A DNA stretch of 64,000 nt from Octopus sinensis (lineage: Eukaryota): assembly GCF_006345805.1 (NCBI RefSeq), contig NC_043010.1:56296001-56360000 (forward strand), written 5' to 3'. A program made the translations under genes and the position numbers. Of this stretch, positions 132 to 62,600 are shown in pieces. Under the pieces are notes generated by a model that was not told the origin of the DNA, ran no database searches, and saw only the letters and a list, made by a program, of their open reading frames with translations. The first letter of the stretch is position 1; each line of letters begins with the position of its first letter.

Positions 132-135
<4 letters not shown>

Positions 136-426
136 ATCAAAATAAAAACATGATGCGAAGGATTCAGCGGTACATATGTTTCGGGCCTTTATTAGACAGA
201 TTTATAACAATGCATAATGTATGTCTGTGGCCTTCTTCAGCCGCGGCTGAAGAAGGCCACAGACATACATTATGCATTGTTATAAATCTGTCTAATAAAG
301 GCCCGAAACATATGTACCGCTGAATCCTTCGCATCATGTTTTTATTTTGATCAATTTACTCCACCACCTACACCACCAAACGGTATACACAGGTGCTTAT
401 AATTATCAAGTACTCACCCCGAATTT

Positions 427-430
<4 letters not shown>
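132..430. mobile_element. Short palindromic Penelope-like (pseudo-LTR-type) unit: 224-bp spacerless inverted repeat (132-355) plus an unpaired tail
   Basis: The arms 132-243 and 244-355 are reverse complements centred on CAGCCG|CGGCTG. The unit sits within (TA)n and contains hammerhead cores. Confidence 0.7.
243..320 (+). ncRNA. Type-I hammerhead ribozyme motif (mirror copy on the minus strand at 167-244)
   Basis: GCGG-CTGAAGA-AGGCC..GGCCC-GAAAC-ATAT-GTA-CCGC. Stem I GCGG/CCGC, stem II GGCC/GGCC, stem III AC/GT with palindromic ATAT loop, GUA cleavage triplet. Confidence 0.75.
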
Positions 431-468
<38 letters not shown>

Positions 469-554
469 GTGTGTGTGTGTGGTGTGTGTGTGTGTATACA
501 TGTATGTATGCATGTATATATGTATGTGTGTGTGTGTGTGCGTGTGTGTGTAAA

Positions 555-720
555 TGCATCCGACGGACTGGCCCATAGTTTCCGTCCAACAAATTGCCCT
601 CACAAATCACTGATCAACGAAGGTGTGAAGCAGAAGACCCTTGTCCAGTGAGTTACTGTGCCGTGGTATGGAACCCGGGATCAGGTAGACTCAAAAGAAT
701 CTTCTTAACCAAACACTATT
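555..720 (-). mobile_element. Decayed partial tRNA-derived SINE (same family as 31256-31660)
   Basis: AGTTTCCGTCCAACAAATT..CTCACAA..AGAAGAC matches the other SINE copies in this window. Confidence 0.5.
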
Positions 721-1184
721 ATATTCCTTGCAGCCATATTTCAGTTAACAAATTCGTTTCTATTTAATAACAAAGAGACCGACCGACAGACAGACAAACG
801 GACGGACAGACGTACACAAGGACGGACAGACGGTCGGGAACGATGGACACACAGGCAGACAGACGGACGGACGAATAGACAGACAGTCAAGCAGGTAAGG
901 AGGGAGGAAGGAAGGGGGTATTTGGGTAGGTAAGCCCTGAGCCTGTCGGGTAATCTACTTCGCTCTCAATGTACCCTGGCCCAAGAATGCCTCCCTCAAT
1001 CCGACTCCACCCGATTCAGTAACTCTTCTGATGAAATCCCAATCGTTATTAACAACAAAAGTGGTGCCACCCCTGTAACAGTAAACGGGTAATATCCGGA
1101 TGGATTAACTGGGTTTTTGATGGAACGGATTCTCTTCTATGTTTTGTGAAATGATTCCAGAACTTGAGGCAAAATAGATCTATT

Positions 1185-1590
1185 GCTGTTTAACCTTAGG
1201 TCAGCTCTGTCAGACAGACCTGATCAAGGCTACTCCAGTCGTGACCATCCTGTCTTTATGTGGAGAAGGGATTACAATGCTATCGTTCTTTTCATTAAAA
1301 GTGGTGAGATGTAATTTGAGGGAAAATTATTATTTCTAGTAGAACAGTGGCCACGTGGAGGATCCGTCTTTGATTCTGAGATAAAACAATAAGTATCACG
1401 AGGAGATTGTTGTAGTTGTTGTTGTTGTTGTTCAGCCGTCCTTCAGAAATAATTAAAGTCACTCCATCTGAGACCATCCTCTCTTATTTTTTCAACCATA
1501 ACGTACAATGTGATGTTCTTTTCTTTTTAAGACGTTAGGGTGTTGTTTGAGGATGTATTGGTTGCTATTTCTGGTTAAGCAACCTCATAT
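1185..1590 (+). repeat. Two decayed copies of an unclassified dispersed repeat (motif TGATTTGAGGGAGATTTGGCTGCTATTTCTAG); related pieces at ~2460-2545 (-), ~48420-48535, ~51110-51290 and ~61740
   Basis: A shared motif recurs at several places in the window. Confidence 0.45.
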
Positions 1591-1619
1591 TGTTGACTCA
1601 CCTGGTACACGTCTCCACA

Positions 1620-2400
1620 TCGAACCTAGAACCTGGACACAAATATTTATCCATCGATGTCAAATATTTCGGTGTGTCCGTGTGTCGTACACAACCATCC
1701 ATTAAATATTATAAATGTATAACAATATAAATCAACTGTTAAAGTAATTAGCATCTGGTGGGGAAGGGCAGTGAGACAAGATTTTATTTAATTATTCAAT
1801 TGGTGTCAGTCATTTGTCTGCGGCCATGCTGGATCACCCACTTTTCACTTCATTATCTCAGCCTCAACGTACACACACACATGCATGTTTTATTAAATAC
1901 ACGTTTATATTTAAGTTTTGTCTTTTTTGTTGTATATTTTTAATATTATTAACTTTTTTTATTGTTGTTAAAATGTATCTGCAATAAACTGCTAATACTT
2001 CTACAATCCACAAAATAATTAAAGATTTTTTTAAATACAATTCCTAATAATATTTAATTATAAAAATATTATAGGAATTTTAAAAAGAAACATTGAATAG
2101 CTTTGGGGGTCCAGTAGAATATAACAGAAATCAAAGGGATCCATAGGCAAAAAATGGTTGCGAAGGTTTCGACCTTCGCACCAAGGTTTTTTGGCTGTTA
2201 GCATCACACATCGGCTGTCACCTGTTGATTTGTGTGTTGCGATCAAAGTTTGACCGTTCGGTATTTTGTAATTTTATGTCAGTGGTGACTCGTTCATTTC
2301 TTGATGTGTTTACGTGTTGTGACATGAATGCGGTTTCCACAATTAATCTTTTGTTTTTGTGTAGAATTCGATAAAGTATTTAAATGTTCTCCTCTTGTAT
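1620..2400 (-). mobile_element. Possible highly decayed Penelope-like endonuclease region
   Basis: Weak translated resemblance (VETAFMSQH..., LTAKKPW...CYILLDP) to the C-terminal part of PLE GIY-YIG domains, with a degenerate CCGAAAT motif downstream at ~1665. Confidence 0.25.
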
Positions 2401-2582
2401 TTTCCTATTTAATTTCATCAAGTGGTGTGTGGTCCAATAATAACGACATGAATCAATGCTAAAGCCTCGAGGTGTTTTTCGACATGCTACGAAGAGCAGC
2501 TAAATCTCCCTCAAGTCACACAGTTCCGCTTTAAAAACAGGGACAAGTAGTAGTAGAAGTAGTAGTAGTAGTAGTAGTAGTA

Positions 2583-2623
<41 letters not shown>

Positions 2624-5365: not shown

Positions 5366-5744
5366 GGGGTAAAAATTATTTGGCAGTCCTGGTTTAGGAC
5401 GAATGTTGATGTTATCTAGCCCCAGGAGACATCGTCTCCAGCTGCCTATACGACATGAACTGTGTCCTTATATCTTTGAACAAGGGAATATAGCCCCCCC
5501 CCCCTCAGCTCAAAACAATATCTGTGTATCGCGATTTCAGGGATGAAGAGAAATAACCCAGAAATCGTGATACACAGATATTGTTTTGAGCTGACTTGGG
5601 GTGCTAGATTCCCTTGTTCGAAAATATAAGGACACAGTTCGTGTCGTATAGCCAGCTGGAGACGATGTCTCCTGGGGCTAAATTACAGCAACATTCGTCC
5701 TAAACCAGGACTGCCATGTTATGTTGGCAAACAATCTTTACCCC
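5366..5744. mobile_element. Foldback MITE, ~380 bp, almost entirely inverted repeat
   Basis: Termini TA-GGGGTAAA...TTTACCCC-TA; the arms pair along most of their length around a short central loop at ~5540-5556. Confidence 0.85.
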
Positions 5745-7936: not shown

Positions 7937-8015
7937 CGAGGGTATGCTGAAAAGTTCCTGGTTTTAAGGGTATTGCGAAAGGCCGGGCTGGAAGTTCAAC
8001 CTCCAGAGTTCTTTA
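7937..8015 (+). mobile_element. Left arm of a mariner-type MITE split by nested insertions
   Basis: TA-CGAGGGTATGCTGAAAAGTTCCTGG... is the reverse complement of 10914-10993. Confidence 0.75.
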
Positions 8016-8023
8016 TATATATA

Positions 8024-8533
8024 CTAGCAGTATCGCCCGGCGTTGCTCGGGTTTGTAAGGGAAATAACTATATAAGCATTTTTAGAGAGTTACTTCCCTT
8101 ATAGATGCCAATTCGGGCTTTCTTAGCCATTTCTGTTTTGGTGTCTTCAAGCCATGAAGTCGTTGTTCTAAAAGAACGCTGGTCTCCTTGACAACGCTTT
8201 ACGACGTTGATTTCCTTACATTCCCTTCCCCACAGTTTCACGAGGGAGGGAAGAAGGGGGAGAAGCAAACAGGTGCAGGTGTGACCATGGACGCCAACTC
8301 CGCCGCCATCGACACACGAAAAATTATGCATTAAAATGGAATAAAAAAATGATGTTAAATTATTTTTAAAATCGTAGACTCATCGTAGACGCGCGCTAAT
8401 AGCCAGACGGGCTCCATATGAATCACGACTATAAGATACCCGAATTTGGTGAAACAGCACCGCAAAATGTGGGAGTAGTTAGGAATCTAAATCGAAGGGG
8501 ACAGACACTCACACAACTACAGTTTTATATATA
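8024..8533 (-). mobile_element. Non-autonomous Helitron-type element, copy 1 of a tandem dimer
   Basis: On the minus strand it ends in a hairpin (CCCGAGCAACGCCGGG) followed by CGATACTG-CTAG|T; it is highly similar to 8536-9041. Confidence 0.75.
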
Positions 8534-8535
8534 TA

Positions 8536-9041
8536 CTAGCAGTATCGCCCGGCGTTGCTCGGGTTTGTAAGGGAAATAACTATATAAGCATTTTTAGAGA
8601 GTTACTTCCCTTATAAATTCGGGCTTTCTTAGCCATTTTTGTTTTGGTGTCTTCAAGCCATGAAGTCGTTGTTCTAAAAGAACGCTGGTTTCCTTCACAG
8701 CGCATTACGACGTTGATTTCCTTACACTCCCTTCCCCACAGCTTCACGAGGTAGGGAAGGGGGAGAAGCAAACAGGTGCAGATGTGAGCGTGGACGCCAA
8801 CTCCGCCGCCATCGACACACGATGCATTTTATGCATTAAAATGGAATAAAAAATGATGTTAAATTATTTTTAAAATCGTAGACTCATCGTTGACGCGCGC
8901 TAATAGTCAGACGGGCTCGATATGAATCACGACTTTAAGATACCCGAATTTGGTTAAACTGCACCGCAAAATGTGGGAGGAGTTAGGAATCTAAATCGAA
9001 GGGGACAGACACTCACACAACTAGAGATTTATATATATAGA
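8536..9041 (-). mobile_element. Non-autonomous Helitron-type element, copy 2 of a tandem dimer
   Basis: On the minus strand it starts A|TC and ends with hairpin-CTAG|T; direct repeat of copy 1. Confidence 0.75.
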
Positions 9042-11420: not shown

Positions 11421-11599
11421 ATATATATATAAAGTCGAATTTAAAGTCGAAGAATGAAGGCTTAGAAAGTCGGTGTTAAACAGTGTCCAAAGCTTGTCTG
11501 CAGAGCACGTTCACCACCTATGGCTATCAGGCGTCATCAGCGATACCGTACGTTCGTCGTCGGATCTATGTCCGGTATTCCGAGGTGCACGTAGGGTAT

Positions 11600-11917
11600 A
11601 TTTTAAAAGATTAATACGGAAGACAGAGTATTTATTAGCATGACAATCATTTCGGCTTCATTCAGTTCCCAGATTTACTTTTCATTTTTGCTTCAAGTTT
11701 TATGCTGATGGTGTGAATCTAGCAGTTGGGACACCATCAGCATAAAACTTGAAGTAAATCTGGGAACACGTGAAGCATCTTACATCACCTGATGAGGCTT
11801 TTTTCCAATGTGCGTAGCATCTGGTGTTATAACATCGCTCCACGCCCACTAGGGAGCAGTGCAGAATGAAGCCGAAACGATTGTTGTGGTCCCTCTTCCG
11901 AATTAATTCTTTAAAAT
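11600..11917. mobile_element. Imperfect nested-palindrome Penelope-like unit containing a hammerhead
   Basis: Outer IR ~11600-11663 / 11864-11917 and inner IR ~11665-11714 / 11731-11767. Confidence 0.6.
11784..11890 (+). ncRNA. Type-I hammerhead motif with an extended stem II loop
   Basis: ATCAC-CTGATGA-GGCTT...AAGCC-GAAAC-GATT-GTT-GTGGT. The partial inverted copy reads GAAAT-GATT-GTC. Confidence 0.65.
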
Positions 11918-12991: not shown

Positions 12992-13882
12992 CAGGGTGCG
13001 ATGGGTGAACTATCGCCATTTTATATTCTTTATTTTGCGCATGTGCATTGTCTGTTTTAGATTTTGTCGACTACGCAATATAGTAGGGTCAGTTGGGCAC
13101 CGTCTGCGAGAAAAAACAGGACCATGACACAATTGATTCTGCCAGAAATTTGGAGACAACACGCTGTACTGCTCGGCAATTGTGCTGGAAGCTCCAATAC
13201 AAACATTTCAGAGTGTTTAGGTGTCAATCTGCGGACAGTGCAATCTGAGGACATGTACCGAGAGTGATAAAAATCAAACATCTAGTCAACACCATGGTGT
13301 TTGGAGTGATCACTATAGTGATGGCAACATCATGCCTCCATTCATCTTCCCATATAGCCTCAGACTCAACATGGATTCCTACATAAAGTGCCAAAAGGAG
13401 GTAGTGCTGCCCTGGCTCAAGAGAGTGGCTGCTGGAAGACCCTATGTCTGGCAACAGGACTCTGCACCATGCCACACAAGCAAGAGAACCCAGTCGTGGC
13501 TGTCGGACAATTTATGCGACCACATCACCCCTAACAACTGGCCACCTAACTCCCCCGACTGGAACCTCCTTGATTAATATGTGTGGGGCACAGTTAAGTG
13601 AGAGACCAAAAAACTCCTTGTAACACCAAAGATGAACTGAAGGCAAGGATTATGACAGCATTCACTAACTTAAACAAGGAGACCGCCCAGAAGAGTTGCA
13701 GCAGATTCCGAAATCGTCTGGAGGCCATGGTTGAAGCCAATGGCGATTTTATTGCATAAATTTACTCTTTAGTATTTCAAGATATTTTAATGCAATTTTG
13801 GTAAATACATCTGTTAAAATGAAATGTCAGTGTTATTTTCATTTTGGCGTAATTTAAAGAACAGTTTACTCACCGCACCCTG
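12992..13882 (+). mobile_element. Internally deleted DD37D (maT-type) Tc1/mariner element
   Basis: TA-CAGGGTGCG...CGCACCCTG-TA; QQDSAPCH...WPPNSPDWNLLD with 37 residues between the two aspartates. Confidence 0.85.
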
Positions 13883-14831: not shown

Positions 14832-14879
<48 letters not shown>

Positions 14880-15251
14880 CATTAGGTTGTCAGTTGACAT
14901 TTCCTGCGGGAATTTGAAGTTTTAAATCTGATCTATATTGATCTATCAAACACCATTAACTATTATTGTAGGTTTTAGTTTAGTTTTAACGGTTTACAGC
15001 CTGCAAAATAGCATTGTTGTTGTTGTTATTGTTGTTTTTTTCTGCTGCGGCTACTACTGTTGTTGTTGCTGCTGCTACTACTATTGTTGTTGGTGTTGGC
15101 GTTGATGGGAAAATTTGAATTCTTTCTAAATTGAACCGTTTGTTTCTAGAAATAAAAAAAGTACGAAAATACCAGTGAAGTGAGACGAAGAAATCACAGT
15201 AAAATGTCAAAAAAAAGTTGAAGAAATTTCTGATTTAATATTATTTCATAA

Positions 15252-15470
15252 AGCGGCGAACTGGCAAAATCGTTAGCACTCCGGACAAAATGCTTAGCAG
15301 CATTTCGTCCGTCTTTAAGTCCTGAGTTCAAATTCCACCGAGGTCGACTTTGCCTTTCATCTTTTCGGGGTCGATAAATTAAGTAGTAGTGAAACACTGA
15401 AGGTCGATGTAATCGACTTGTCCCCTGCCCAGAAATTTCAGGCCTTGTGCCTTTAGTAGAACGGATTATT
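15252..15470 (+). mobile_element. tRNA-derived SINE (family B, Nin-domain-like) with (ATT)n tail
   Basis: GCGGCGAACTGGCAAAATCG head, B box GAGTTCAAATTCC, core GTCGACTTTGCCTTTCATC. Confidence 0.8.
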
Positions 15471-15894
15471 AATATTATTATTATTATTATTATTATTATC
15501 CATTAGGTTGTCAGTTGACATTTCCTGCGGGAATTTGAAGTTTTAAATCTGATCTATATTGATCTATCAACACCATTAACTATTATTGTAGGTTTTAGTT
15601 TAGTTTTAACGGTTTACAGCCTGCAAAATAGCATTGTTGTTGTTGTTATTGTTGTTTTTTTCTGCTGCGGCTACTACTGTTGTTGTTGCTGCTGCTACTA
15701 CTATTGTTGTTGGTGTTGGCGTTGATGGGAAAATTTGAATTCTTTCTAAATTGAACCGTTGTTTCTAGAAATAAAAAAAGTACGAAAATACCAAGTAAAA
15801 CATAAAAGAAATCACAGTGAAGTGAGACGAAGAAATCACAGTAAAATGTCAAAAAAAAGTTGAAGAAATTTCTGATTTAATATTATTTCATAAA

Positions 15895-16112
15895 GCGGCG
15901 AACTGGCAAAATCGTTAGCACTCCGGACAAAATGCTTAGCAGCATTTCGTCCGTCTTTAAGTCCTGAGTTCAAATTCCACCGAGGTCGACTTTGCCTTTC
16001 ATCTTTTCGGGGTCGATAAATTAAGTAGTAGTGAAACACTGAAGGTCGATGTAATCGACTTGTCCCCTGCCCAGAAATTTCAGGCCTTGTGCCTTTAGTA
16101 GAACGGATTATT
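15895..16112 (+). mobile_element. SINE family B, duplicated copy
   Basis: Essentially identical to 15252-15470. Confidence 0.8.
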
Positions 16113-16159
16113 GATATTATTATTATTATTATTAATCATCATCATCATCATTATTATTA

Positions 16160-17581: not shown

Positions 17582-17760
17582 ATTTTCAATATTTTCATGC
17601 AAGTTTCCACTGCATCACTTGATACTCCTCTGTCTTCATGATGTATCGATAAGATGGAGACCCGTGGTAGTAATTTGCAATGAAAAAAAAAATGAAGTTG
17701 GGTCAGAATTTGACGTGCAAATAACGGTAATGTATACGTGTATATATATATATATACACG

Positions 17761-17798
<38 letters not shown>

Positions 17799-17814
17799 CA
17801 TACATACATACATA

Positions 17815-18903
17815 CAGTTGTTGGACAAAATAGTAGAAGCACCTAGCATCATTGCATCATAATTTTGAAATATCTAGAAAACCGTCAAAAGCTTGTTTAT
17901 CTTTGTCTTTTGATTTATCATTAGTGTTGCTTAATATGTTTCGCTAAAATGGCTGGCATAACGAAAACAGCCGAAATGTTTGGTGTATCAAGAAGTACTG
18001 TCTCGAAAGTAATGACAGCCTTTGAGAAAGAGGGAAACACCTCCTCGTCGAAATAAAACTCCAGAAGAAAACCTAAACTTTCAGATAGGGACCGTCGGAC
18101 TCTTATGCAAATTGTAAGAAAGGATCAGAAATGTACAGCTCCCAAAATTACTGCAGAGCTTAATGATCACCTCGAGAACCCAGTTTCTACAAAAAATTCA
18201 CCGGGAGCTGCACAAAGCCGGATTTCATGGGCTACAATCAGAAAACAACTACTTTCAGAAACAAACGTTGCAAAGCATTTAGAGTGGAGTAAAAACCTAC
18301 AGAATTGGTCCCTAAAGCAGTGGAAGAATGTTATTTTCTCAGACGAGTCATCCTTTACCTTATTTCCGACCACCAGCCGGGTATACGTGTGGAAACAGCC
18401 AAAAGAATTTGACCCAGACTGCCTTCTTCCGATTGATAAACATGGAGGAAGATCTGTGATGATCCGGGGGTGGGGCTATATCTTGGGAATCCACCAGCCC
18501 AATGGTTTCCCTTCATGGCAGAATTAATAATCAAGACTATTTAAGTATTTTATCTGATCCAATTCATCCTATGGTAGCGGAACTGTTTCCAGGGGAAAAC
18601 GCAATCTTTCAGGATGATAATGCACCAATTCACACAGCTAAAGTTGTTACTGAATGGCATGAGGAACATTCTAGTGAAGTTGAAAATCTTATCTGGCCAC
18701 CACAGTCCCCAGATCTGAATATTATTGAACAATTTAGAAAAACATGTAAGGAGTCGATATCCTCCACCATCATCACTACAAGACCTGAAGACTGTTTTAG
18801 TTGAAGAATGGATAAAAATTACTGCCAAAGGTGGACCTACTCCTTTATGAAAATAAATTTGTTTGAAATTTTAAGGTGTTTCCATTATTTTGTCCAACCC
18901 CTG
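17815..18903 (+). mobile_element. Decayed Tc1-like DD36E element, copy 1
   Basis: TIRs CAGTTGTTGGACAAAATA / TATTTTGTCCAACCCCTG; VIFSDES, FQDDNAPIH, WPPQSPDLNIIE. Confidence 0.9.
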
Positions 18904-22288: not shown

Positions 22289-22333
22289 ACAGTGACTTCG
22301 AAGTTTCGGCCAGCGAAACCATCATCGGATTAT
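22289..22333 (-). ncRNA. Degenerate minimal type-I hammerhead motif
   Basis: Minus strand ATAAT-CCGATGA-TGGTTTCGCTGGCC-GAAAC-TTCGAA-GTC-ACTGT: palindromic stem III loop and GUC site, with one core substitution (U4C). Confidence 0.5.
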
Positions 22334-29431: not shown

Positions 29432-29494
29432 TAAATACATGTGTGTAATTGTGTGTATCTGTGTCTGTGTATGCATGTATACATATTCTCTTTC

Positions 29495-30908: not shown

Positions 30909-30912
30909 TGTA

Positions 30913-30954
<42 letters not shown>

Positions 30955-31201: not shown

Positions 31202-31243
<42 letters not shown>

Positions 31244-31255
31244 TTATACATATAT

Positions 31256-31660: not shown

Positions 31661-31676
31661 TATGATATATATATAT

Positions 31677-31738
<62 letters not shown>

Positions 31739-34842: not shown

Positions 34843-36262
34843 ACGGTGTATACTTTCAATGCTGATATCAGAATGGATTTCGGACTGAGAAAGTGTGGTG
34901 TGTTAGTCTTGAAGAGAGGCAAAATCAAATGTATGGACGGACCGGCAAAACCGTCGGGAGAGGTTATGAAGCAGATAGAAGAGACGGGCTATAAGTACTT
35001 GGGGATTCGGGAAATGGATAAATTGATGGAGAAAGAAATGACAGAAAAATTTAAGGTGGAGTACTTGCGCAGACTGAGACTGATCCTTCAGTCGAAATTA
35101 AACGGATGGAATACGATCGAAGCTATCAACCCCTGGGCGGTTTCACTCTTTAGATATGGATCAGGGGTAATCTCATGGGCAGTAAACGAACTAAACAGCT
35201 TTGACAGAAAGACAAGGAAGTTACTAACTAGATATGGGTCACTCCACCCAAAAAGTGACACAGATAGACTCTATGTACCAAGAAAAGAGAGGGGGAAGAG
35301 GACTAATTGGATGCGAACACAGCGTTAGAAGAAAACAACATAGCATGGTATATAAAAAAACGCCACAGAGCCGCTATTATTAGAAGTAAGAAGGTCAGGA
35401 TGAAAGATTGCAAAGATAAAGCATTGTACAAGTAATTGAAAACGAATGAAACTGAAAATAGGTGGGAAAAGAAAAGAATGCATGGTCAATTTCATAGGGA
35501 TATTGAAGATAAGACAGACAGAGAAAAAAGATGGCTGTGGATGACTAAAAGTGATTTAAAACCGGAAACAGAAGCTCTAATCTGTGCTGCCCAAGAGCAA
35601 GCACTAAGAACAAACTACATAAAATACAGAATGGACAACACAGCAGAAAGTGATAAGTGCAGAATCTGTGGACATAACGGTGAAACCGTATGGCATATTA
35701 CCAGGCAAGGTACACTACTAGAATATAAAAGACGTCATAACAATATAGCCACGATTTCCATTGGACACTTTGCAACAAGTATGAACTTGACAGAGCAAAA
35801 GCGTGGTACGAACATAAACGCGAAGGTAACGTCGAAAATGATACTGCAAAGATCCTATGAGATTTTATGATTCAGTACGACCATGAGATAGAGAATAGGA
35901 AATGATGCTGGATCATGGAAATAGCATGCCCAGCTGACAACAGAGTATGCGATAAAGAAGAAAGAAAAGTTGATAGCTATGATAGGTAAGCTTGGGAGGT
36001 TAAGAATTGTGGTCGATGAAAAAGGTGGTAATAGTACCAATAATTGTCGGAGCCCTGAGAACAGTGAGTAAAAATTTTGAGAAGTACATGGAATAAATGG
36101 GGGCTGCAGTAAGAGTGAAGCACTTGCAGAAAACAGCACTGCTTGGAACTGCTCGAATACTCCGGATGATGCTCGAAAAATAAGGGGCGTTACCTTAGTT
36201 CGCTGGTAGTGAACAGCTGGTACCGCAGTACATATCCAGCATTAGAAGCTGTGCAAAGGCAA
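34843..36262 (+). mobile_element. 5'-truncated decayed R4/Dong-type LINE (family 1)
   Basis: MDFGLRKC, YKYLG, AAQEQALRTNY, CRIC...ETVWHI zinc knuckle, LQKTALLGTARILR; ends in (CAA)(TAA)n. Confidence 0.9.
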
Positions 36263-36284
36263 TAAATACAACAACAACAACAAC

Positions 36285-36317
<33 letters not shown>

Positions 36318-36319
<2 letters not shown>

Positions 36320-36436
36320 GCAAAACACTCTCAATACAGTAACCATAAGAGCATCATAACAAACCACAGCACATATCCAAGGCACACAGAGCTGCGCTCA
36401 GTAGTGAAGTGAAAGCACGATATAAAAATAAAACTA

Positions 36437-36441
<5 letters not shown>
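36318..36441 (+). mobile_element. 3'-end stub of R4/Dong family 2
   Basis: Similar to 38405-38528 and flanked by (TAA)n on both sides. Confidence 0.85.
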
Positions 36442-36476
<35 letters not shown>

Positions 36477-36559
36477 TAATAATAATAATAATAAAAATAA
36501 TAATAATAATAATATAATAATAATAATAATAATAATATAATAATAATAATAATAATAAC

Positions 36560-38528
36560 TACAGATCGACTACAGAAAGGCGTTTGATAGCATCCCCCAC
36601 ACATGGATCCTCGAAACACTAGCCATTAACAAAGTTGCGCCAACAATTATAAAATACATAGGACACCCTATGAATAAATGGCAAACAGTGCTATAGCTCC
36701 AAACAAAAGAGGGATTCATGGAAACCAAAGCCATCCCCATTAGAAGAGGAATATTCCAGGGAGACACGCTCTCTCCACTCCTTTTCTGCTTGGCACTGTC
36801 ACCTCTATCTGATATGCTAAATAGAACTGGATGCGGATATAAATGCTACAGCAAAACGATCAGCCACCTTTTATATATGGATGACCTAAAACTATACGCT
36901 ACAAATGACAAACAGCTGGAAACACTACTAAAGACAGTTCATAGATTTACCAAAGAAATAGATATGAAATTTGGATTAGAAAAATGCGCCAAAGTAACCC
37001 TGAAAAGAGGAAAACTAGTTAAGAGTAGCAACATCACACTAGATAAAACCAATGAAATAAAAGAATTAGGCCAAACTTACAAATACTTAGGAATCCATGA
37101 ACTAGATAAGACACAACATGAAAGAGAAAATAAAAAAAGAATATTATAGACGAGTTAAATCAATACTAAAAACAGAGCTCAATGCTAAAAACAAGATAAT
37201 AGGTATTAACACTTTAGCCGTCCCAGTTATAAGTTACAGCAACAATATCCTTAACTGGACACTAAATGAACTGACCAAAATAGATAGGAAAACAAGAAAA
37301 ATAATGGCAGGATCTAGGATGCATCACCCAATATCTGACATAGAAAGGCTATATATACAACGTATAGAAGGTGGTAAAGGCCTTATACAGCTGGAAAACT
37401 ACTATAAAATAACCACCATAGGACTGCAAAAATATCTACTCCAGAAGGAAGGAAAACTGATACATATAAGGCAAAACACGAGAAAAACAAAAAAACTCTT
37501 CTCAGTATTTAAGGAAGCTGACAAATACAAACAAGAAATCATACCACCTAACAAATATGAAGAAGAAGAAGAAGAAGAAGAAGAAGAAGAAGAAGAAGAA
37601 GAAGAAGAAGAAGAAGAAGAAGAAGAAGAAGAAGAAGAAGAAGAAGAAGAAGAAGAAGAAGAAGAAGAAAACCATGGTAAAACGATGGCAAGAAAAGCCC
37701 CTTCGTAGCAAATACCGGACTAAACTAAATGCAAAAGAAATAGACAAAGAAAAATCCCAGCAATGGTTGAGAAGCTCAGGACTCAAAGTAGAAACAGAGG
37801 GATTTTTAATTGCAGCACAAGACCAAAGCCTACCCACCAGAAATTACCAAAAACATGTAATGAAAAGAAATATAACAAGTAACTGCAGAATATGTGGAGG
37901 TGGACAAGAAACAATAAATCATATTATCTCTGGCTGCCCAGTCCTGGCTAAGAAGGAATATATTCACAGACACGACAGAGTTAGGACCTACATACACTGG
38001 AAGCTATGCCAACATTATGGAATAACAACAGAAAAAAGATGGTATAGGCACACACCAGAAAAGGTCACAGAAAACGAGAAAGCAACCATACTCTGGGATA
38101 TGCCGATACACACAGATAGAGAAATTAAGGCCAACAGGCCAGATATAGTTGTCAGAGATCATGAAGAAAAAAAATGCTTTCTAATTGATGTATCAATACC
38201 AGCAAATGACAACGTGTCTCTAAAAGAAATGGAGAAACTTTCAAAATACAAAGACCTGGAAATAGAGGTAACCAGAATGTGGAATCTAAAAACAGAAACA
38301 ATTCCTATCATAGTAGGTGCATTAGGCATGATAAAAAAATTTCAAATACATAACAAAAACACCAGGACTTACAAAATTGCACTACTAGGCACTGCACACA
38401 TTCTACGCAGAACACTTTCCATACAATAACCATCAGAGCATCACAACAAATCACAGCACATACCCAAGGCACACAGAGCTGCGCTCGGTAGTGAAGTGAA
38501 AGCACGCTATAAAAATAAAACTACTGAA
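36560..38528 (+). mobile_element. 5'-truncated R4/Dong-type LINE (family 2) with an internal (GAA)n expansion
   Basis: DYRKAFDS, GIFQGDTLSPLLF, YMDD, CRIC..ETINHIISGC, NRPDIV, KYKDL. Confidence 0.93.
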
Positions 38529-39254: not shown

Positions 39255-42200
39255 AAACCTACATAAACTGGAGACAGAAACACCCTGAAGCAAGACCCTA
39301 CACAGACAGTAACAAATTTGCCAACGTCAGAAGAAACATTATAAAAAAAAAATACTGACTGAAGTAGAGATTGACCAAATTAGACAAGCAGTAACGGATA
39401 GAATGAACGAAGCTGCAGCTAGAGAAGATAATACAGAGGAAATAATTATAGACCAGCTCAGAGCTAATACAAACGAAGTAAGGATTGAAAGAGTTAGTAT
39501 AAGTGATAGGCAAAGTGAAATACTCACTGAACCAATCATAAACACTAAGACAGATGAACATCAAATAGATGAAGAAAGTCACACAAATATTGACCCGACA
39601 GAACTACATGAGCTAAAACGTCAAATCATGATTGAATGGCTGAAAATTAAAGAAACCAGTATGGATGAACGTGATTCACTCCCTAAAATCCGCAAATCTA
39701 ACCAAAACATGAAAATAATTGGTAAAATCCGGCTTGCACTTAAGGATATAATTTCAGCTAATGATGTTGATATCACAGATCTCAACCACCTATACTATGC
39801 ATCCGCGAAAATCTCAACGATCCTATGTGGTGAAAAGATTAGAAAACGGCAACATTTCCACAAAAAGCCTTCTTGGCAAGAGCGTTTGCAACAACAAATT
39901 AAACTATTTAGATCTGACATTGAATATTTGAAAAACCTTAAGGTTCATAAGACTACCAAACCTGCAAAACCCCAAAAACTAATGAAAAAATATAATATGA
40001 AAACTATACTTGATATTGATGCCACCATAGAAACCATCAAGCAAAAGGTATCTGCTAAAGCTACCCGCATAGCGAGGTATGAAAAGCGTATTAGATTCTT
40101 CAGGGACAACATGTTCAAAAATAACCCCAAACATTTTTACAGGAAGATAGGAAAAACAACAGTTACTGTAAAGTCTGTACCATCAAAAGAAGAAGTGCAG
40201 GGATTTGGGAATAAAATTTGGGCAGAAGAAAAAACACACAGCGAAAAGGCCCCCTGGATTGATAGAATATCTAAAGAACTGGACTCCTTAGAAGAGCAAA
40301 AGTGGGAGGGTGTCAAGGTAGAAGATATAAGATCTGCTCTCAGGAGGTCAAGCAATGGAAGTCTCCAGGAAAGGATAAAATCCCTAACTTTTGGTTGAAT
40401 GCCTTCCCAGAGAGCCATGAACTGCTAACAGAACTTTACAATGATGTTTTGCAACACCCTAGTAGGATGCCTCCTTGGCTAGTTAATGGGTTAACATTCC
40501 TGCTTCCAAAAAGTGAAGAAACAAATGAACCCAAAAACTATAGACCCATAACCTGCTTAACAACTATGTATAAAACACTAACATCTGTCCTGACGGATAT
40601 ACCTATAGTTTTTTGACAGACAGCAGCATATTCCCTAATGAACAGAAAGGATGTAAACGTGGATCCTACGGCTGTAAAGATCAACTACTCATCATAAGAT
40701 GATCTTAGAAGATTGTCACAAACGACACAAAAACTTATCAATAGCCTGGATAGACTATAAAAAGGCTTTTGATAGCCTACCACATAGCTGGATTAATAAA
40801 TGCCTAGAAATGTATAAGATAGCACCTGCTCTGCGAAACTTTTTGTCTGTAAGTATGAGATCATGGAGAACCACACTAACTTTGAACAGTGACAATGAAT
40901 CTCTAAATGCTGGTGATGTAAAAAATTCATGTAGCATTTTCCAGGGTGACTCACTATCACCGCTCCTCTTCTGTTTAGCCTTAATACCTCTCTCAAAACT
41001 GCTCAATGACGCGCAGTACGGATATAAAATGTTTGATAAAAATATAAATCATCTCATTTACATGGATGATTTTTAAAGCTCTTTGCAAAAAATGACCAAC
41101 AACTCAAGGCTTACTAGCGATTGTCAAACAATTCAGTGATGACATCAGAATGCAATTTGGCCTCGATAAGTGCGCAAAAGCTACCTTTATCAAAGGAAAA
41201 ATGACAGAAACATCTAACGTTAACCTTACCAGCAGAATGTCATAAAAGAATTAGACCCAGCAGAGAACTACAAGTATCTAGGGGTAATTGAAGGAGAGGA
41301 ATAAGGCATTCAGAGATGAAGGAAAGGATTAGGAGAGAATGCTATCGCAGAGTAGAGCAATACTCAAGACAGAGCTGAATGCGAGAAACAGGATCGAAGC
41401 GATCAATGCATTAGCCATACCAGTCGTGACTTACAGTTTCAATATCGTTAACTGGTCAATTACTGAAATATGTAATCTTGACAGAAAAAATACGAAAACT
41501 GTTGACAATGCATAGAATGCACCACCCTAAGGCAGATACAGAACGACTTTATCTGCCAAGAAAAGAGGGAGGCCGTGGACTTTTACAACTGGCAATAACA
41601 ATGAAGATTGCTACAATTGGCCTAGACACCTACCTGAAAAACTCTGAGGACTGGATGTTAAAACTTGTCTCAAAACATGAAAACAAGAAAGCATCATACT
41701 CAGTAACAAAACAGGCAAAGGAATATCTAAGTGAATTCCGAAGATGACAAATTTCGGAATTAGAGATAGACACACAAGAAACAGGCACAGAAAAAGCTAA
41801 GCGCATGAAAACTCGTGCTAAATCTGCGGCCTTAGATATTCTGAATGATAAATGGCAAGAAAAACCTCTCTATGGCAAATACCCAAAGAGAGCAAATAAT
41901 GCAGATGTTGACAAAGCCCTGATCCATCAATGGCTAATGGCATCTGGCTTAAAATCTGAAACAGAGGGGTTTATCATAGCAGCTCAAGATCAATGCCTAC
42001 CAACAAGAAACTACCAGGCCAACATATTAAAGATCAGAAGCAGTCCAACGTGTCGTGTATGCAAGCAACAAAATGAAACCATTGACCATGTTGTCTCCAA
42101 GTGCAGTCTTCTAGCGCCTACAGAGTATCTCAACAGGCACGATAGAGCTGCACAATATATTCACTGGGTAATCTGTAAAAACCTGGATTTGCCCCATGAA

Positions 42201-42826
42201 AAAAACTGGTGGGAACACAAACCACCCCCAGTGCTTGAAAATGACCACATCTCACTCCTCTGGAACTTCACCATTCAAACTGACAGAAAGATAGATGCAA
42301 ATAGGCCAGACATCATATTGAAAGACTTCAAACAAAGAACATGCCTCCTCATTGATATGACTGTCCCAATCGATATAAACGTATCTGTCAAGACCTACCA
42401 AAAACTGAGCAAATATAAAGATCTTGAAATAGAAATCAGCAAAATGTGGAACCTGAAGACTAAAATAATACCTGTTGTCATAGGTGCCCTGGGAATGATA
42501 GCAAAAGGGGCTGATAGCTACCTAACTCAGATACCAGGAAACCCAAAAATGGCAGAAATTCAAAAGATAGTGCTCATGGGAACTGCTCATATCCTACGCA
42601 AAATACTTTCTATGTAATCTCAAGGTTTAAAACAAACATAATTTTCGGTTTAAAAAAAAAAAAAAAAACTTTTTTTAGACATTCATTAGTACAACACCCC
42701 CACCCCCCCAAATATATGGCACACTAGGCATAACAACAACATGAACTTCCAACCCTGTTGTCTCTTGAGGTCTCTGGGTGAGACTTGGAGCCAACTTGTA
42801 CAAATATAAAGCAAAAGTCAAACATA

Positions 42827-43056: not shown

Positions 43057-43351
43057 ATAGTATTTTATAAGCTTAAAGCTTATGAGCGATCGCCACGCAG
43101 CGACTAAAGAAAACAGTCTAATAATGAGGCATATAAACCTACGCAAATCCACAGCCCTTTTTTTTTCGCGATAAGAATACTAGTGTAATGGTAGCATTCT
43201 TCTCGCGAAAACAAGGAGGTGCGTGTTCGAGTCCCACGCCTACGGGAAAATCTACTTTTTCCGACGAGGGATTATATGCCCCATTATTAGACAATTTTCT
43301 TTAGTCCCTGCGCGGTGATCGCTTATAAGCTTTAAGCTTATAAAATACTAT
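43057..43351. mobile_element. TIR element (~84-bp arms) enclosing a tRNA-like Pol III A/B-box cassette
   Basis: TAGTATTTTATAAGCTTAAAGCTTAT... / ...ATAAGCTTTAAGCTTATAAAATACTA; internal TAGTGTAATGGTAGC and GTTCGAGTCCC. Confidence 0.75.
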
Positions 43352-44564: not shown

Positions 44565-45230
44565 AGATAAGAAAGTTTGTTTGGTAAAGCACGTGGGTGA
44601 TATATAAGAAAATAGTAAAGTGTGAAAAAACGACAGAAGGCTTAAATGTTAAAAAATATATATATTTGTGTCAAAATGTCTGGAGAATATTGGAAAAATT
44701 TTTTTCCTTTCCTTATAAATGACATAATTTTAAAATTTTTAAGAAATTACCGGTTTCGCGTGTAGCTTTTCAAATTTCTTGTGACGTTATTTTATATTGC
44801 ATGAATTATCGTTGTTTTTATTTCCAGGAGATTTCTAAATAAGGGGAGGTAGTGAGTGATTTTTTCCGGTGTAGGGGAGATAATCGCTAAAAAATTTTTT
44901 TCCATTTCCTTGTTAATTTCTCTGTGTCAGTATGTTCGGATGGTTGAGTCTGGGTTTGTACTTTTCAATGAAGAATGTTTCCTTGTTCAGTCTCATTTGT
45001 GTTGATGATCCGAGCACATTGGTAAAATGGAAGATTAAAAATTGTGGCAGTAGTTGCTTTGCATTTCTCAATGTGCTCACTAAAAGGTATCATTCTATAT
45101 TCTGGGAATGCAATCTGTTGTCGATGCAGTGTGCATCTGCGCCTGAGTGATAGTCCCGTGGAACCCACGTAGTCTGGTGGCAGCCCGAGCATTTAATAAC
45201 ATAAATTATGTTTTCAGAGGCACAAGTAAG
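44565..45230 (-). mobile_element. 3' part of a Penelope-like retroelement: GIY-YIG endonuclease remnant plus 3' non-coding region
   Basis: [16 protein letters not shown] / [17 protein letters not shown] / KETFFIEKYKPRLN. Confidence 0.85.
44741..44780 (-). ncRNA. Minimal type-I hammerhead with U3-A8 core covariation
   Basis: AAGAAAT-TTGAAAA-GCTACACGC-GAAAC-CG-GTA-ATTTCTT: perfect 7-bp stem I and palindromic ACCGGT. Confidence 0.7.
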
Positions 45231-45284
45231 TTACATATATATATATATAATATATACATATATATATATATACATACATACATG

Positions 45285-46849: not shown

Positions 46850-47400
46850 CCGGCCACAAAAAGTCGATGTGGCAACATAAATCCATTTTTCTTCTGTCGA
46901 TGGGTCACTTACGATTTTGCTGCTTCTTATACAGTAGTCTGCACTAATCTAATTTATGTATATGTAGACACACTGGACATAACTGTTTGTAATAAACACC
47001 ATACCTCAGAAACAGATGTAAAGTACTGCCTATGCTTTTCAATCCAGAACTTGCGAGGCTATCACTAACGGTTCCATCGATTTCCCTGACTTATCTAGGT
47101 TGAACCAACACGAACAATCACTCCAATTCACTCCTATTTTATCAACGATATTGTTGAACGCATTTACTAGAGTTGCATTCATCTACCAGGAGTCACTATG
47201 GATTTTCACCCTCCAGACTCTCAGAGTTTTCTGCTAAGTTATATTTTTGTAATCTCTTCTATATGAATATGTTATAAATGACTTGATACCACGCAACCAA
47301 CAGTTCATCTTATCGACCTCTCCGTTGCCAATGCCAACGCTCGGTTCCACGGATCCGGCATCTCTTCACTCACATTCAGATTTTAGATACTTGCTCTGGT
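46850..47400 (+). mobile_element. Highly decayed Penelope-like GIY-YIG region
   Basis: YTVVCTNLIY...CNKHHTSET and ESLWIFTLQTL (47190-47222) resemble PLE endonuclease motifs. Confidence 0.5.
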
Positions 47401-47452
47401 CTCCTCCGTCCACCCATTTTATTATATGCCTTTTTGACATTTTCTGAACTCT

Positions 47453-47544: not shown

Positions 47545-47910
47545 CAATAAATTAATAGTAATGGTAAGACAACAAAAGAATGAGACCTCGATATTATACA
47601 AATAGAGGAATTTATTTGTAATATGTGACAATTATTCGGTTGGCATGATAAAACTCCGAGTTTCGGATGTCGGGGCAGAAACCTGCACCGGCATCGCTTC
47701 AGTTATCGAGGCAATTCTTCGATAACTGAAGAGATGCCGGTGCCTGTTTCCGCCCCGACATTCGAAACTCGGAGTTTTATCATGGCAACCAAATATTATA
47801 TTACAAATATATATATTAATAGTAATGGTAAGACAATAAATGAATGAATGCGACCTCGACATTATGTAAATAGAGGAATTTATCTGTAATATATGTGACA
47901 ATTGTATTAC
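47545..47910. mobile_element. Palindromic hammerhead-bearing Penelope-like unit with a duplicated tail
   Basis: IR ~47635-47709 / 47719-47795; the tail at 47551-47632 is repeated directly at 47817-47905. Confidence 0.7.
47721..47781 (+). ncRNA. Type-I hammerhead motif (inverted copy on the minus strand at 47647-47707)
   Basis: GATAA-CTGAAGA-GATGCCGG..CCGACATTC-GAAAC-TCGGA-GTT-TTATC; perfect stem I GATAA/TTATC. Confidence 0.72.
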
Positions 47911-47916
47911 ATATAA

Positions 47917-47963
<47 letters not shown>

Positions 47964-48034: not shown

Positions 48035-48059
48035 GTCATGATAAGCGAAACCGGTAGAC
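48035..48059 (+). ncRNA. Hammerhead-like remnant lacking stem II
   Basis: GTC-ATGATAA-GC-GAAAC-CG-GTA-GAC. Confidence 0.35.
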
Positions 48060-52527: not shown

Positions 52528-52653
52528 CAATATATACATGTACAAATATATATACATGTACAAATATATATACATATACAAATATATATACATATACAAA
52601 TATATATACATGTACAAATATATATATACATATACAAATATATATATACATAT

Positions 52654-52660
<7 letters not shown>
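52528..52660. repeat. 18-bp AT-rich minisatellite (ACAAATATATATACATRT)
   Basis: Seen directly in the sequence. Confidence 0.85.
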
Positions 52661-52694
<34 letters not shown>

Positions 52695-52706
52695 CATACA
52701 TACATA

Positions 52707-53850
52707 CAGTTGTTGGACAAAATAGTAGAAGCACCTAGCATCATTGCATCATAATTTTGAAATATCTAGAAAACCGTCAAAAGCTTGTTTATCTTTGTCT
52801 TTTGATTTATCATTAGTGTTGCTTAATATGTTTCGCTAAAATGGCTGGCATAACGAAAACAGCCGAAATGTTTGGTGTATCAAGAAGTACTGTCTCGAAA
52901 GTAATGACAGCCTTTGAGAAAGAGGGAAACACCTCCTCGTCGAAATAAAACTCCAGAAGAAAACCTAAACTTTCAGATAGGGACCGTCGGCTCTTACACA
53001 AATTGTTAGAAAGGCTCACAAAAGTGCAGCTCCCAGAATTTCTGCAGAGCTTAATGACTACCTCGAGAACCCAATTTCCACAAAAACTGTTCACCGGGAG
53101 ATGCACAAAGCCGGATTTCACGGAAGGGCTACAATTAGAAAACCACTACTTTCAAAAACAAACGTTGCAAAGCGTTTAGAGTGGAGTAAAAAAAAAACCT
53201 ACAGAATTGCAGTGGAAGAATGTTATTTTTTCGGACGAGTCATCCCTTACCTTATTTCCAACCACTGACCGAGTATACATGTGGAGACAGCCAAAAGAGG
53301 TATTTGACCCAGAATGCTTTCTTCCAACTGTTAAACATGGAGGAGGATCTGTGATGATCTGGAGGGCTATATCTTGGAAATCCACCAGCCCAATGGTTTC
53401 CCTTCATGGCAGAATTAATAGTCAAGACTATTTAAGTATTTTATCTGATCCAATTCATCCTATGGTAGCGGAACTGTTTCCAGGGGGAAACGCAATCTTT
53501 CAGGATGATAATGCACCAATTCACACAGCTAAAGTTGTTACTGAATGGCATGAAGAACATTCTAGTGAAGTTGAACATCTTATCTGGCCCCCACAGTCCC
53601 CAGATTTCAACATTATTGAACATTTATGGTGCATTTTAAAAAAACAAGTAAGGAGTCGATATCCTCTATCATCCTCACTACAAGAACTGGAGACTGTTTT
53701 AGCTGAAGAATGGACAAGAATTCCTTTGGAAACAATTCAAACTTAGTACGAGTCCATACCTCGTAGAATTCAAGCTGTAATTACTGCCAAAGGCGGTCCT
53801 ACCCCATATTAAAATAAATTTGTTTGGAATTTTAAGGGTTTTCCATTATA
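52707..53850 (+). mobile_element. Tc1-like DD36E element, copy 2, right TIR truncated
   Basis: VIFSDES, KHGGGSVMIW, FQDDNAPIH...WPPQSPDFNIIE (36 residues between D and E). Confidence 0.92.
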
Positions 53851-56982: not shown

Positions 56983-57018
56983 CTTTCTGTTGAAGAGCGT
57001 AGGCTCGAAACATAAAAG
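56983..57018 (+). ncRNA. Variant minimal hammerhead-like motif
   Basis: CTTT-CTGTTGA-AGAGC-GTAG-GCTC-GAAAC-ATA-AAAG: stem I CTTT/AAAG and stem II GAGC/GCTC. Confidence 0.45.
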
Positions 57019-59384: not shown

Positions 59385-59796
59385 CTATACTCTTTACTCT
59401 TTACTCTTTTACTTGTCATTTGACTGCGGCCATGCTGGAGCACCGCCTTTAGTCGAGCAACTCGACCCCGGGACTTATTCTTTGTAAGCCCAGTACTTAT
59501 TCTATCGGTCTCTTTTTGCCGAACCGCTAAGTGACGGGGACGTAAACACACCAGCATCGGTTGTCAAGCAATGCTAGGGGAACAAACACAGATACACAAA
59601 CACACACACACTACATATATATATATATACATATATACGACAGGCTTCTTTCAGTTTCCGTCTACCAAATCCACTCACAAGGCATTGGTCGGCCCGGGGC
59701 TATAGCAGAAGACACTTGCCCAAGATGCCACGCAGTGGGACTGAACCCGGAACCATGTGGTTGGTTAGCAAGCTACTTACCACACAGCCACTCCTG
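59385..59796 (-). mobile_element. SINE family A, full length and well preserved
   Basis: A/B-box head, body and (GAGTAAAA)n tail. Confidence 0.92.
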
Positions 59797-59984
59797 TGTT
59801 CACATAAATTTATGTTCACATGAATTAAAACAAATTAACAGTTCTAAAGTTTTCAAACATATCTTCAGAGAAACTCTGCTGTCTGAGAAACATGGTTGCA
59901 ATACCAGTAATATTACAATACCATCGACATTGTAATACCTTCAATACTGCGCAGCCATCATACAGACGTTTTCATACAATCGAC

Positions 59985-60643
59985 AAAGGGGTTATACCGA
60001 GATGATGGTCTGATACTTTGAGAGACGCTGCACATATTTAAAGGGGACATGCGAGGATGGTGACAAGGGGGATGATAATGATGAATATATACACATACAC
60101 ACGATGAGAAGGAGAAGGAAGGGAGGAGGCGAAGAGGAAGAAGAAGGAGGAGGAGGAGGAGGAGGAGGAGGAGGCTGATGATCGTACTGTTGATGCTGTA
60201 AGAGAATAAGTTAGAAATATATTGGTCAGGATTTCTTCCTCTATTTTACATGTTTACATCGAAATGATGTAAACATTTTGTTTGTAATTTATTTTAGTTT
60301 CAGAAAGAGAAAGATGAAGAGGGGTAGATGGTACTCGATGCAGGGTACAGGATACCTACGTGTACAGATAACCAACAAATGCCTGGAGGGGGTCTGGTCC
60401 CTAAAAGCAAACGTTTTCCAACATATTTTATTTGAAACTTACTCTCTCACTTCATCACCATCACCATCATAATCACAATCCAATGCACACTCCCTACTTT
60501 CTCAGACGTCCTCTCCCTATCATTTCACTCCCGAAATTTATCAGAAACCGTCAGACCAAAATACAGTCAGCTTCTCCGTCAAGATATATGGGCCACGCAT
60601 AGCAATACACACACACACACATACGTATGTGTGGTGTTGTGTG

Positions 60644-60699
<56 letters not shown>

Positions 60700-60785
60700 G
60701 ATATATATATTCATACATAGATATATATGTGTGTGCGTGTGTCTACATATATATATTATATACAGATAGACAGACAGACGGACGA

Positions 60786-60880
<95 letters not shown>

Positions 60881-61080
60881 TAGATACATGTACATATATA
60901 TAGATATATCTATATATATATATATACTATATATATATATAATATATATATATAGTAATATATATATAATATATATATATATATATCGGTAGATATATGT
61001 GCGTCTATGATATAGACACAAAATTGGTACCATAGGTTGTTTGTGATCGAGTGCTTATATATGTAATACACATATCTAGA

Positions 61081-61115
<35 letters not shown>

Positions 61116-61672
61116 TATATATATATTTATTAGATATATATATATATATATATATATGGCATGTTGATATATACATAGTTATATACATATATAAATGTTT
61201 GCGTATATATATATACATAATTGCATATATAGGAGTGGTGTGCGTATGTGTGTGTGTGTGTGTGTACCCCTATACATGTATTTATGTGTATATGTAGTAA
61301 TGTAGCTGTAACAGCTTCCCTATAAACACTGAAGCTGGTCCAACGAGTTAAGTGCGAATAAATAAATAAATAAATATATCTTATATCAACTTATCTTCGA
61401 CTTAATTATTTCTTTAAATACACATTTGCACACACACACACTCACATGCATATGTACACACACACACACACTTATATATATATATATATCTATACATACA
61501 CATAGACATACGTATGTGCAAGCATATATGTATGTGTGTAATATATTCCCGTGCGTATATAATTTACAGCTAGCGAGGGTGTATAAAGATGAGAAGTAAC
61601 TCAAATATTTGAAACTTGCAGACACATTTGTTTTAAAGTACTTGACAGCTTCTAGTAGTAGTAGTAGTAGTA

Positions 61673-61735
<63 letters not shown>

Positions 61736-62600
61736 AGGCTTTGATTTAGGAGAATTTAGCTGTTCTTTCAGCATGGTAACGGAGCACGAAATAATAATGG
61801 TGATGATGATGAAGCTGACAATGAAGATGCGGTGAGGTGATTATATGTGTTCAATAAAAATCTCTCATTTGTAACTTATTATAATTAATACCTAGTTATT
61901 AATGAAAGTTTCTCCCGATTAGGGAGAGCAAATGTTGAAGTCTGTAAATATGGCAAAACATTTCCTCTCTCTAATCGAAAAACATTTCCCAAACGGCCAT
62001 AAATTCCAGACGTTATTCAAAAAAGCAACATTAAATTGAGTTGCAGTTGCACGAAAACTCATACCTAATAACATCAGAAAGCAAAATGGGAAAATTTTGA
62101 AAACAAGCGAAGAACGAAGGCAGCCGACATACAGCTGTTGAATTATGAAGATCCCCCCCCCCCAAAAAAAAGAGTAAATACTTAGAGAAAAACATTGAAT
62201 TTTCATCATCAATACTGTAACGAGCAAATCAAGTTTTCCATAACATCGTGTTCGGTTATCGCCAAGAACAGATTATCAGCATTTGATAAGCAGCGTTAGA
62301 TATGACACAGGTATTTAAAAACTGATGAAAATCCTGTGACTTCTGTCTTGCAGAGAAGTCTTACATCATCCACCATCCTACACCAATTTTAGATATTATA
62401 ACAAAAAAATGAACTCATATCGACTTGCCGACAATGTATCAAAATTCTGCCTTGACAATTTTAAAGAAATCTCCTTCATTTGTGACAGATGACAACTCGC
62501 AATTTACACTGTTTACACCAGCAAGAGTCATTATTTCAAACCTGTTCACATGTATGGTCGAGCAACCAAACGAAACTGCGGTTAAGATTAGATACTCCTT
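59985..62600 (+). mobile_element. Fragmented ancient Penelope-like element interrupted by microsatellites
   Basis: GLYRDDGL (59989-60012), MAKHFLSLIEKHFPNGHKFQTLF (~61950-62020), KNELISTCR (~62405), GAAAC-TGCG-GTT (62572-62583). Confidence 0.6.

Follow-up and report, generated by a model that had tools for sequence, protein, structure and literature searches.

Metazoan Penelope-like elements (PLEs) carry minimal type-I hammerhead ribozymes in their pseudo-long terminal repeats (pLTRs), and the consensus described for them combines an unpaired base after A9, a G10.1-C11.1 pair and a palindromic helix III, with a U3-A8 variant of the core (PMC4209133). PLE hammerheads occur mostly as single copies, which were ascribed to truncated PLEs, and the molluscs in the supplement of the same study are Lottia, Crassostrea and Pinctada, with no octopus in the parts searched. 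PLE insertions contain an inverted 5'-truncated copy, a tail at one end, junction palindromes and microsatellite targets (PMC8557442, PMC3846280), and the origin of the tail has been located at two internal sites from which reverse transcription starts (PMC11167929). Metazoan retrozymes, by comparison, are defined by their tandem arrangement (PMC7229834; 10.64898/2026.07.22.740005). Here we analyse a stretch of Octopus sinensis contig NC_043010.1 (the window, 64 kb in full) in which a first-pass annotation had noted seven dispersed hammerhead-shaped loci, named L1 to L7 below, and we argue that these motifs are probably the hammerhead-bearing 3' ends (pLTRs) of several unrelated PLE families, left as short insertion stumps. 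They are likely ordinary PLE tail ends and not a new ribozyme system.

Core anatomy of the hammerhead-shaped motifs

All seven stretches are present in the window, those of L3 and L4 on the minus strand (Table 1). Four of them (L1, L2, L4 and L5) combine a full core with helix II, a palindromic helix III and an NUH site, and a fifth complete motif is the mirror of L1. In these five, a CUGANGA or U3-A8 core is followed by GAAA and by an NUH that is closed by helix I, an arrangement that is broken in L3 (U4C), in L6, which has no helix II, and in L7 (A6U). The proposal of seven type-I hammerheads therefore held for four complete loci, the other three being damaged and likely decayed copies. The accompanying claims of a distinct, fully or largely complementary stem I at each locus and of largely unrelated sequences fared better. 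Helix I, as read from the sequence, pairs at 4/4 positions in L1, 5/5 in L2 (G-U pairs counted), 4/5 in L3, 7/7 in L4, 5/5 in L5, 3/3 in L6 and 4/4 in L7, and the loci are mutually unrelated except for a 12-nt match between L4 and L6. The same reading gives a G10.1-C11.1 pair in L1 to L5 and in L7, not in L6, and an unpaired extra base after A9 in L1, L3 and L7, again not in L6. Helix III is perfectly palindromic in L1, L3 (10 nt), L4 and L6, palindromic with a G-U or an odd centre in L2 and L5, and non-palindromic or broken in L7. The NUH cleavage sites of all loci are predicted.

In these respects the loci resemble the minimal type-I hammerheads of metazoan PLE pLTRs, which likewise have a short helix I, a CUGANGA or U3-A8 core, often an extra base after A9, the G10.1-C11.1 pair and a palindromic helix III, and which likewise occur as many unrelated families per genome with some opposite-strand pairs (PMC4209133). 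They differ from the descriptor published there in their helix III segments of 6-10 nt and in a loop 2 of up to 66 nt.

The excess over dinucleotide-shuffled sequence on which the first-pass annotation had staked its reading was recovered within the window: the published descriptor, widened post hoc, gave five matches, where locally dinucleotide-shuffled sequence gave 0.165 on average and none of 200 shuffles reached five, and our first relaxed descriptor gave four matches versus 0.01-0.14, a count reached by none of 100 local dinucleotide shuffles. A strict canonical descriptor retrieved L2 only, and its single match was reached by 2 of 60 shuffles with a helix I of at least 4 and by 0 of 60 with a helix I of at least 5; the loosest descriptor level gave 0.78 matches per shuffle. 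Scans with DNA patterns of L7 and L5 gave no match in metagenome contigs and none in viral contigs. The single bacterial match in these scans was dismissed as chance, with no similarity outside the 22-mer.

Insertion structure and the Penelope-like remnant at L4

The tie to Penelope-like remnants that had been proposed for the loci is borne out at L4 by a GIY-YIG remnant, while no coding trace was found at the other six. In a protein search, the frame upstream of L4 retrieved three matching proteins, and 44916-45230 aligns across frameshifts to the C-terminus of one of them, P0001 (E 3e-31). A profile of 79 full-length relatives found its sole convincing window match at 44940-45251 (independent E-value 1e-11; the best value in the reversed control was 0.72). 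A CX2-5CxxC linker and a CCHH GIY-YIG domain C-terminal to the reverse transcriptase (RT) are present in the relatives P0001 and P0003, and P0003 matches RVT_1 and GIY-YIG and has a C-X4-C-X2-C linker; the remnant in the window is the endonuclease end only. The linker zinc finger of P0003 is that given for Neptune-type elements in PMC8557442, a resemblance that makes the L4 remnant, alone among the loci, a putative member of the Neptune clade. The L4 motif begins ~130 nt past the stop of the endonuclease remnant, and the whole insertion (~44665-45235) is 5'-truncated with TA-rich repeats on both sides. The whole piece reads as a 5'-truncated PLE with its 3' pLTR, and a U3-A8 core like that of L4 is among the variants reported for these elements (PMC4209133). 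When 50 chosen window frames were compared with Pfam, no PLE domain was found; only LINE (long interspersed element) RT, zf-RVT and Tc1/mariner domains were matched, and these lie elsewhere.

The ORF-less (open reading frame-less) palindromes reported for the window are real at L1 and L5. The L1 arms run over 112 nt without mismatch within a palindrome (129-358) that is 99% self-complementary and centred on CCGCGG; (TA)n flanks the unit on both sides, and a 75-nt AC-rich extension is present on one side only. At L5, a 65-nt extension (47547-47610) is confined to the left arm. Six-base palindromes form the centres of both L1 and the second, shorter stump at 47.9 kb. Head-to-head inverted arms or fold-backs are thus found at L1, L2 and L5, with small ones at L3 (centre near 22346) and at the 47.9-kb stump. 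The inverted 3' half of L2 (11600-11663) has a helix I' unlike that of the direct copy (11772-11890), and a sequence complementary to this deviant helix I' precedes helix I of the direct copy by 5 nt; these could be two variants of the family or alternative choices of helix I.

A dinucleotide repeat follows all nine predicted cleavage sites within 146 nt downstream, compared to 0.30 of random positions (within 150 nt), and (TA)n lies within 200 nt of 8/9 sites versus 0.18, where the nine sites include two mirror pairs and are, being non-independent, equivalent to seven loci. For example, (GT)n begins 32 nt downstream of the L2 motif, and the ~90-nt tail of L7 reaches a TA-rich repeat. Tandem arrays with a period of at least 40 make up 6 of the 217 in the window, and none overlaps any locus.

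The link to PLEs is supported because L4 follows a GIY-YIG remnant, because the anatomy of the motifs fits the PLE consensus, and because the fold-backs, one-sided tails and microsatellite targets match those of PLE insertions. Indeed, the insertion units of endonuclease-bearing (EN+) PLEs also have head-to-head arms, a junction palindrome, an extension at one end only and microsatellite or AT-rich targets (PMC3846280, PMC8557442, PMC11167929). By contrast, the stumps in the window are too short to retain coding sequence, and their one-sided extensions measure 65-75 nt versus the 30-40 bp quoted for EN+ units.

Table 1. Hammerhead-shaped motifs, insertion units and Penelope-like traces in the window.
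Feature	Position	Strand	Remarks
L1 insertion unit	132..430		inverted arm 132-243, direct arm 244-355, extension 356-430
Mirror of L1 motif	167..244	-	descriptor match
L1 minimal type-I hammerhead motif	243..320	+	CUGAAGA, extra A, palindromic helix III, predicted GUA site
L2 inverted arm	11430..11722	-	internal deletion; retains 3' half of motif (11600-11663), extends to (TA)n near 11430
L2 hammerhead motif	11784..11890	+	canonical core, 6-bp helix II base, 66-nt loop, predicted GUU site
L3 damaged motif	22289..22333	-	CCGAUGA (U4C), A-C mismatch in helix I
L4 minimal motif	44741..44780	-	U3-A8 core, 2-bp helix II, 7-bp helix I, predicted GUA site
C-terminal GIY-YIG endonuclease remnant of Neptune-type PLE	44913..45230	-	frameshifted; protein and profile matches
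L5 insertion unit	47547..47812		palindrome 47610-47812 (83%), centre near 47714
Mirror of L5	47647..47707	-	carries A9C
L5 motif	47721..47781	+	CUGAAGA, bulged extended helix II, odd-length palindromic helix III, predicted GUU site
Second, shorter L5-family stump	47815..47915	-	tail only, without hammerhead; small fold-back at CAATTG near 47902
L6 remnant	48035..48059	+	A at position 3; two bases in place of helix II
L7 damaged motif	56983..57018	+	CUGUUGA (A6U), extra A, perfect 4-bp helix II
Possible second PLE end	62200..62590	+	frameshifted CxxC..E..N..CxQ peptide, then decayed hammerhead-like stretch; motif resemblance only

On the basis of published PLE biology, we infer that an RT-GIY-YIG protein would nick AT-rich or microsatellite DNA and that reverse transcription would begin at either of two positions 3' of the hammerhead, which would make the tail optional. 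Synthesis would mostly end early, and the new strand might fold back on a short stretch that is complementary to itself (CCGCGG, CAATTG) or switch template, in which case the mirror arm would be made in the course of the same insertion. Cleavage would take place in the tandem transcript of the parent element, where hammerheads would pair into dimers via the palindromic helix III, perhaps with help from protein. For PLE hammerheads, the literature reports weak cleavage, either by dimers or with the assistance of protein, and insertion in vitro proceeds without need for cleavage (PMC4209133, PMC11167929). Both whole palindromes are predicted to fold as plain single hairpins (-198 and -137 kcal/mol), so that the ribozymes would be buried in them and the palindromic stumps are likely dead ends.

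The L5 family in sequencing runs

Alignment of 47546-47920 with the contigs of runs X1, X8, X18 and X23 gave 3539, 2936, 3366 and 691 contigs, respectively; X23 is only guessed to be RNA, and its 691 contigs are not counted as expression evidence. At least half of the words of the neighbouring stretch 46900-47440 are present in 8 of the 24 listed runs (organism labels A to D), with a small share under labels E and F, and no RNA run is listed with this stretch. Summed Logan depth in X1, which does not equal copy number, falls from tail to core: it is 653,766 at 47637-49 and 89,653 at 47663-75, followed by 44,514 and then by 23,430 at 47689-701. The family ends at 47547 adjoin (TA)n.

The L5 arms exceed a depth of 10,000 in the three larger runs, and depth at the palindrome centre (47716) is 23.6 in X1, 14.6 in X8, 71.3 in X18 and 0 in X23, at least 100-fold lower in all four. 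A change of strand was seen in 4 of the 15 joints shown, out of 40, at four different places and at depths of 9-71. The palindrome centre of L5 is nearly private to this locus; a few non-identical contigs cross a similar centre, which suggests a fold-back hot spot.

Covariation across genomic copies, a further check named in the first-pass annotation, was found in helix II of the L5 family, and conservation together with covariation was observed for this family only, in contig variants and loose-end consensuses. The A9C in the left arm of the window copy is an A in 98% of X1 depth, and the sole other core change among the best 40 of 46 variant rows is G12A at a CpG (8-15%). A helix II mismatch is closed by a variant at 35-40% in X18, and two compensatory pairs are present in distal helix II in the X23 loose-end consensuses; 649 loose-end rows and 10,721 pieces lie beyond those shown. 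Among the X23 loose ends (47669-47706), 7-8 contigs point to an L5 subfamily that appears to have U instead of A9 and in which distal helix II is compensated. The ribozyme fold is thus maintained across the L5 family, whose copies are for the most part short 3' stumps, while the mirror arm tends to be specific to each insertion.

These observations also bear on a reading that we consider unlikely, in which L5, and perhaps L1 and L7, are ORF-less parasites of PLEs akin to short interspersed elements (SINEs): RNAs of 170-200 nt, made of hammerhead plus tail, would have their own transcription and be mobilised in trans, with the mirror arm still made at insertion. The great abundance of L5 in organisms A, D and F, its conserved core and its covarying helix II are consistent with such a parasite, as is the fact that many alignments stop at 47706-47716 and that two strand joints start their direct copy at 47700-47707. 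On the other hand, depth drops so steeply through the motif that a stop soon after it is expected from truncation alone, and some contigs extend 22-476 nt into other sequence past 47715. The lack of PLE coding traces beside L1, L2, L3, L5, L6 and L7 would likewise suit non-autonomous elements, which have been described as derivatives of PLEs (PMC8557442; 10.64898/2026.07.22.740005), but this lack was established with a Neptune-type protein set, which other clades would escape. Equally doubtful in our judgement is that L5 (perhaps also L1 and L7) represents a ~170-nt unit reaching from just upstream of helix I to the tail, with a fold selected across related species, a very high copy number and preferential fold-back at the 5' edge of the ribozyme. 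If true, the parasite reading would reveal a dispersed, non-tandem class of hammerhead retroelements, none of which is catalogued in this lineage, and would supply a large body of natural data for studying the formation of PLE inversions.

Remaining alternatives, window context and significance

We regard it as very improbable that the palindromic units propagate themselves around a fixed centre, each strand bearing a ribozyme, or that they are circle-forming retrozymes. The mismatch-free L1 arms and the few non-identical contigs that cross a similar L5 centre speak for such units, against which stand the absence of any array of period at least 40 overlapping a locus, the at least 100-fold deficit of the L5 centre relative to its arms in all four runs, the existence of other inversion points and the folding of the full transcript as one hairpin. 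Metazoan non-LTR retrozymes share with our loci type-I hammerheads, the lack of an ORF and a proposed PLE ancestry, whereas they consist of head-to-tail tandem repeats of 150-450 bp that yield circular RNAs and the loci described here are single or head-to-head (PMC7229834; 10.64898/2026.07.22.740005). As no locus lies in a tandem array, the loci fall outside the definition of a retrozyme, and the earlier suggestion of several non-autonomous, retrozyme-like families is not upheld, given also the near-private L5 centre and a depth that falls steeply 5'-ward as in truncated insertions. A chance origin of the motifs, as fortuitous resemblances in repeat-rich DNA, is hardly credible and is largely refuted for L1, L2, L4 and L5, even though descriptors were widened post hoc, L6 and L7 fail the stricter levels and Rfam finds none, because 0/200 and 0/100 shuffles reached the counts, L4 is located at the 3' end of a PLE and the core is conserved in the L5 family; chance is possible for L6 alone.

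Several points nonetheless weigh against the motifs being stumps of hammerhead-bearing PLE ends. First, the relaxed and the widened descriptors were both set after the loci had been seen, the published descriptor as coded here (4-nt helix III segment, loop 2 of 3-10 nt) has no match in the window, and Rfam, which the first-pass annotation had proposed as a check, gives no match at gathering score in the window and no hammerhead family among the best 150 of 438 matches at E<=10. Second, a coding parent was seen for one of the seven loci. Third, minimum-energy folds give a good hammerhead topology only for L1 and L4, and only L4 is predicted to form a dimer in which helix III is paired and helix I is exchanged. 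Fourth, helix I is no more than ~15 nt away from the start of three of four fold-backs and of two strand joints, a pattern that a short source RNA would explain as well, and the L5-family sequence upstream lies outside what was seen. Finally, a few contigs cross about the same L5 centre, X8 record 32 being only 83% alike although the neighbouring DNA of that run is close to the window; Logan depth depends on how well contigs align to a diverged window copy, and graph assembly can end just past the centre of a perfect palindrome, so that fixed-centre copies are perhaps under-counted.

The window as a whole has 38% G+C and is rich in microsatellites, SINE-like repeats, LINE remnants and Tc1/mariner copies. 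Two LINE remnants (35400-38430 and 39300-42620) with RT, zinc-binding and restriction-like domains lie beside (TAA)n and (GAA)n and are presumably of the R4/Dong type; the large RT frames at 35-43 kb were ruled out as PLEs by the restriction-like domain at their end. Tc1/mariner copies occupy 17730-18890, 27806-29437, 52620-53850 and 13221-13577, the second of which retains 225-bp inverted ends at 96%. A 350-bp palindrome at 5372-5725, resembling a miniature inverted-repeat transposable element (arms 87-90% complementary), and a ~295-bp element with inverted ends at 43057-43351 (68% self-complementary overall, beside (TA)n) gave no match with either hammerhead descriptor; near 43180-43240 the latter contains what we take to be A-box/B-box-like RNA polymerase III promoter motifs. 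Two inverted copies of a common SINE-like repeat form a 1.3-kb imperfect palindrome (81%) at 30442-31733, and the two-copy tandem duplications at 8012-9039 and 14843-16134 (504 and 642 bp, 93-95% identity) may be genuine or may have arisen in assembly. ARAGORN, run on the window at a lowered threshold, returned only noise. In the peptide at 62.2-62.5 kb (Table 1), CxxC, E, N and CxQ follow one another as they do in descriptions of Hydra-clade endonucleases; the protein search gave no candidate for it, and the Neptune profile did not match it.

The hammerhead class, the general form of its variants and the insertion structure are already known, and reading the motifs as PLE stumps explains them as by-products of a known class of retrotransposon. 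Their density is unsurprising for an octopus, given that a 2026 repeat annotation of Octopus vulgaris assigns 6.83% of the genome and 190 families to PLEs, with ribozymes unmentioned in its text and supplement (PMC13282606); by title and start of abstract, we found no cephalopod hammerhead catalogue in the literature, Repbase and Dfam being outside the scope of that search. What the loci add are variants missed by Rfam and by the published descriptor, namely a U3-A8 core with a 2-bp helix II, a long palindromic helix III and possibly A6U. Moreover, the numerous stumps could serve to chart the start, stop and fold-back points of reverse transcription in PLEs.

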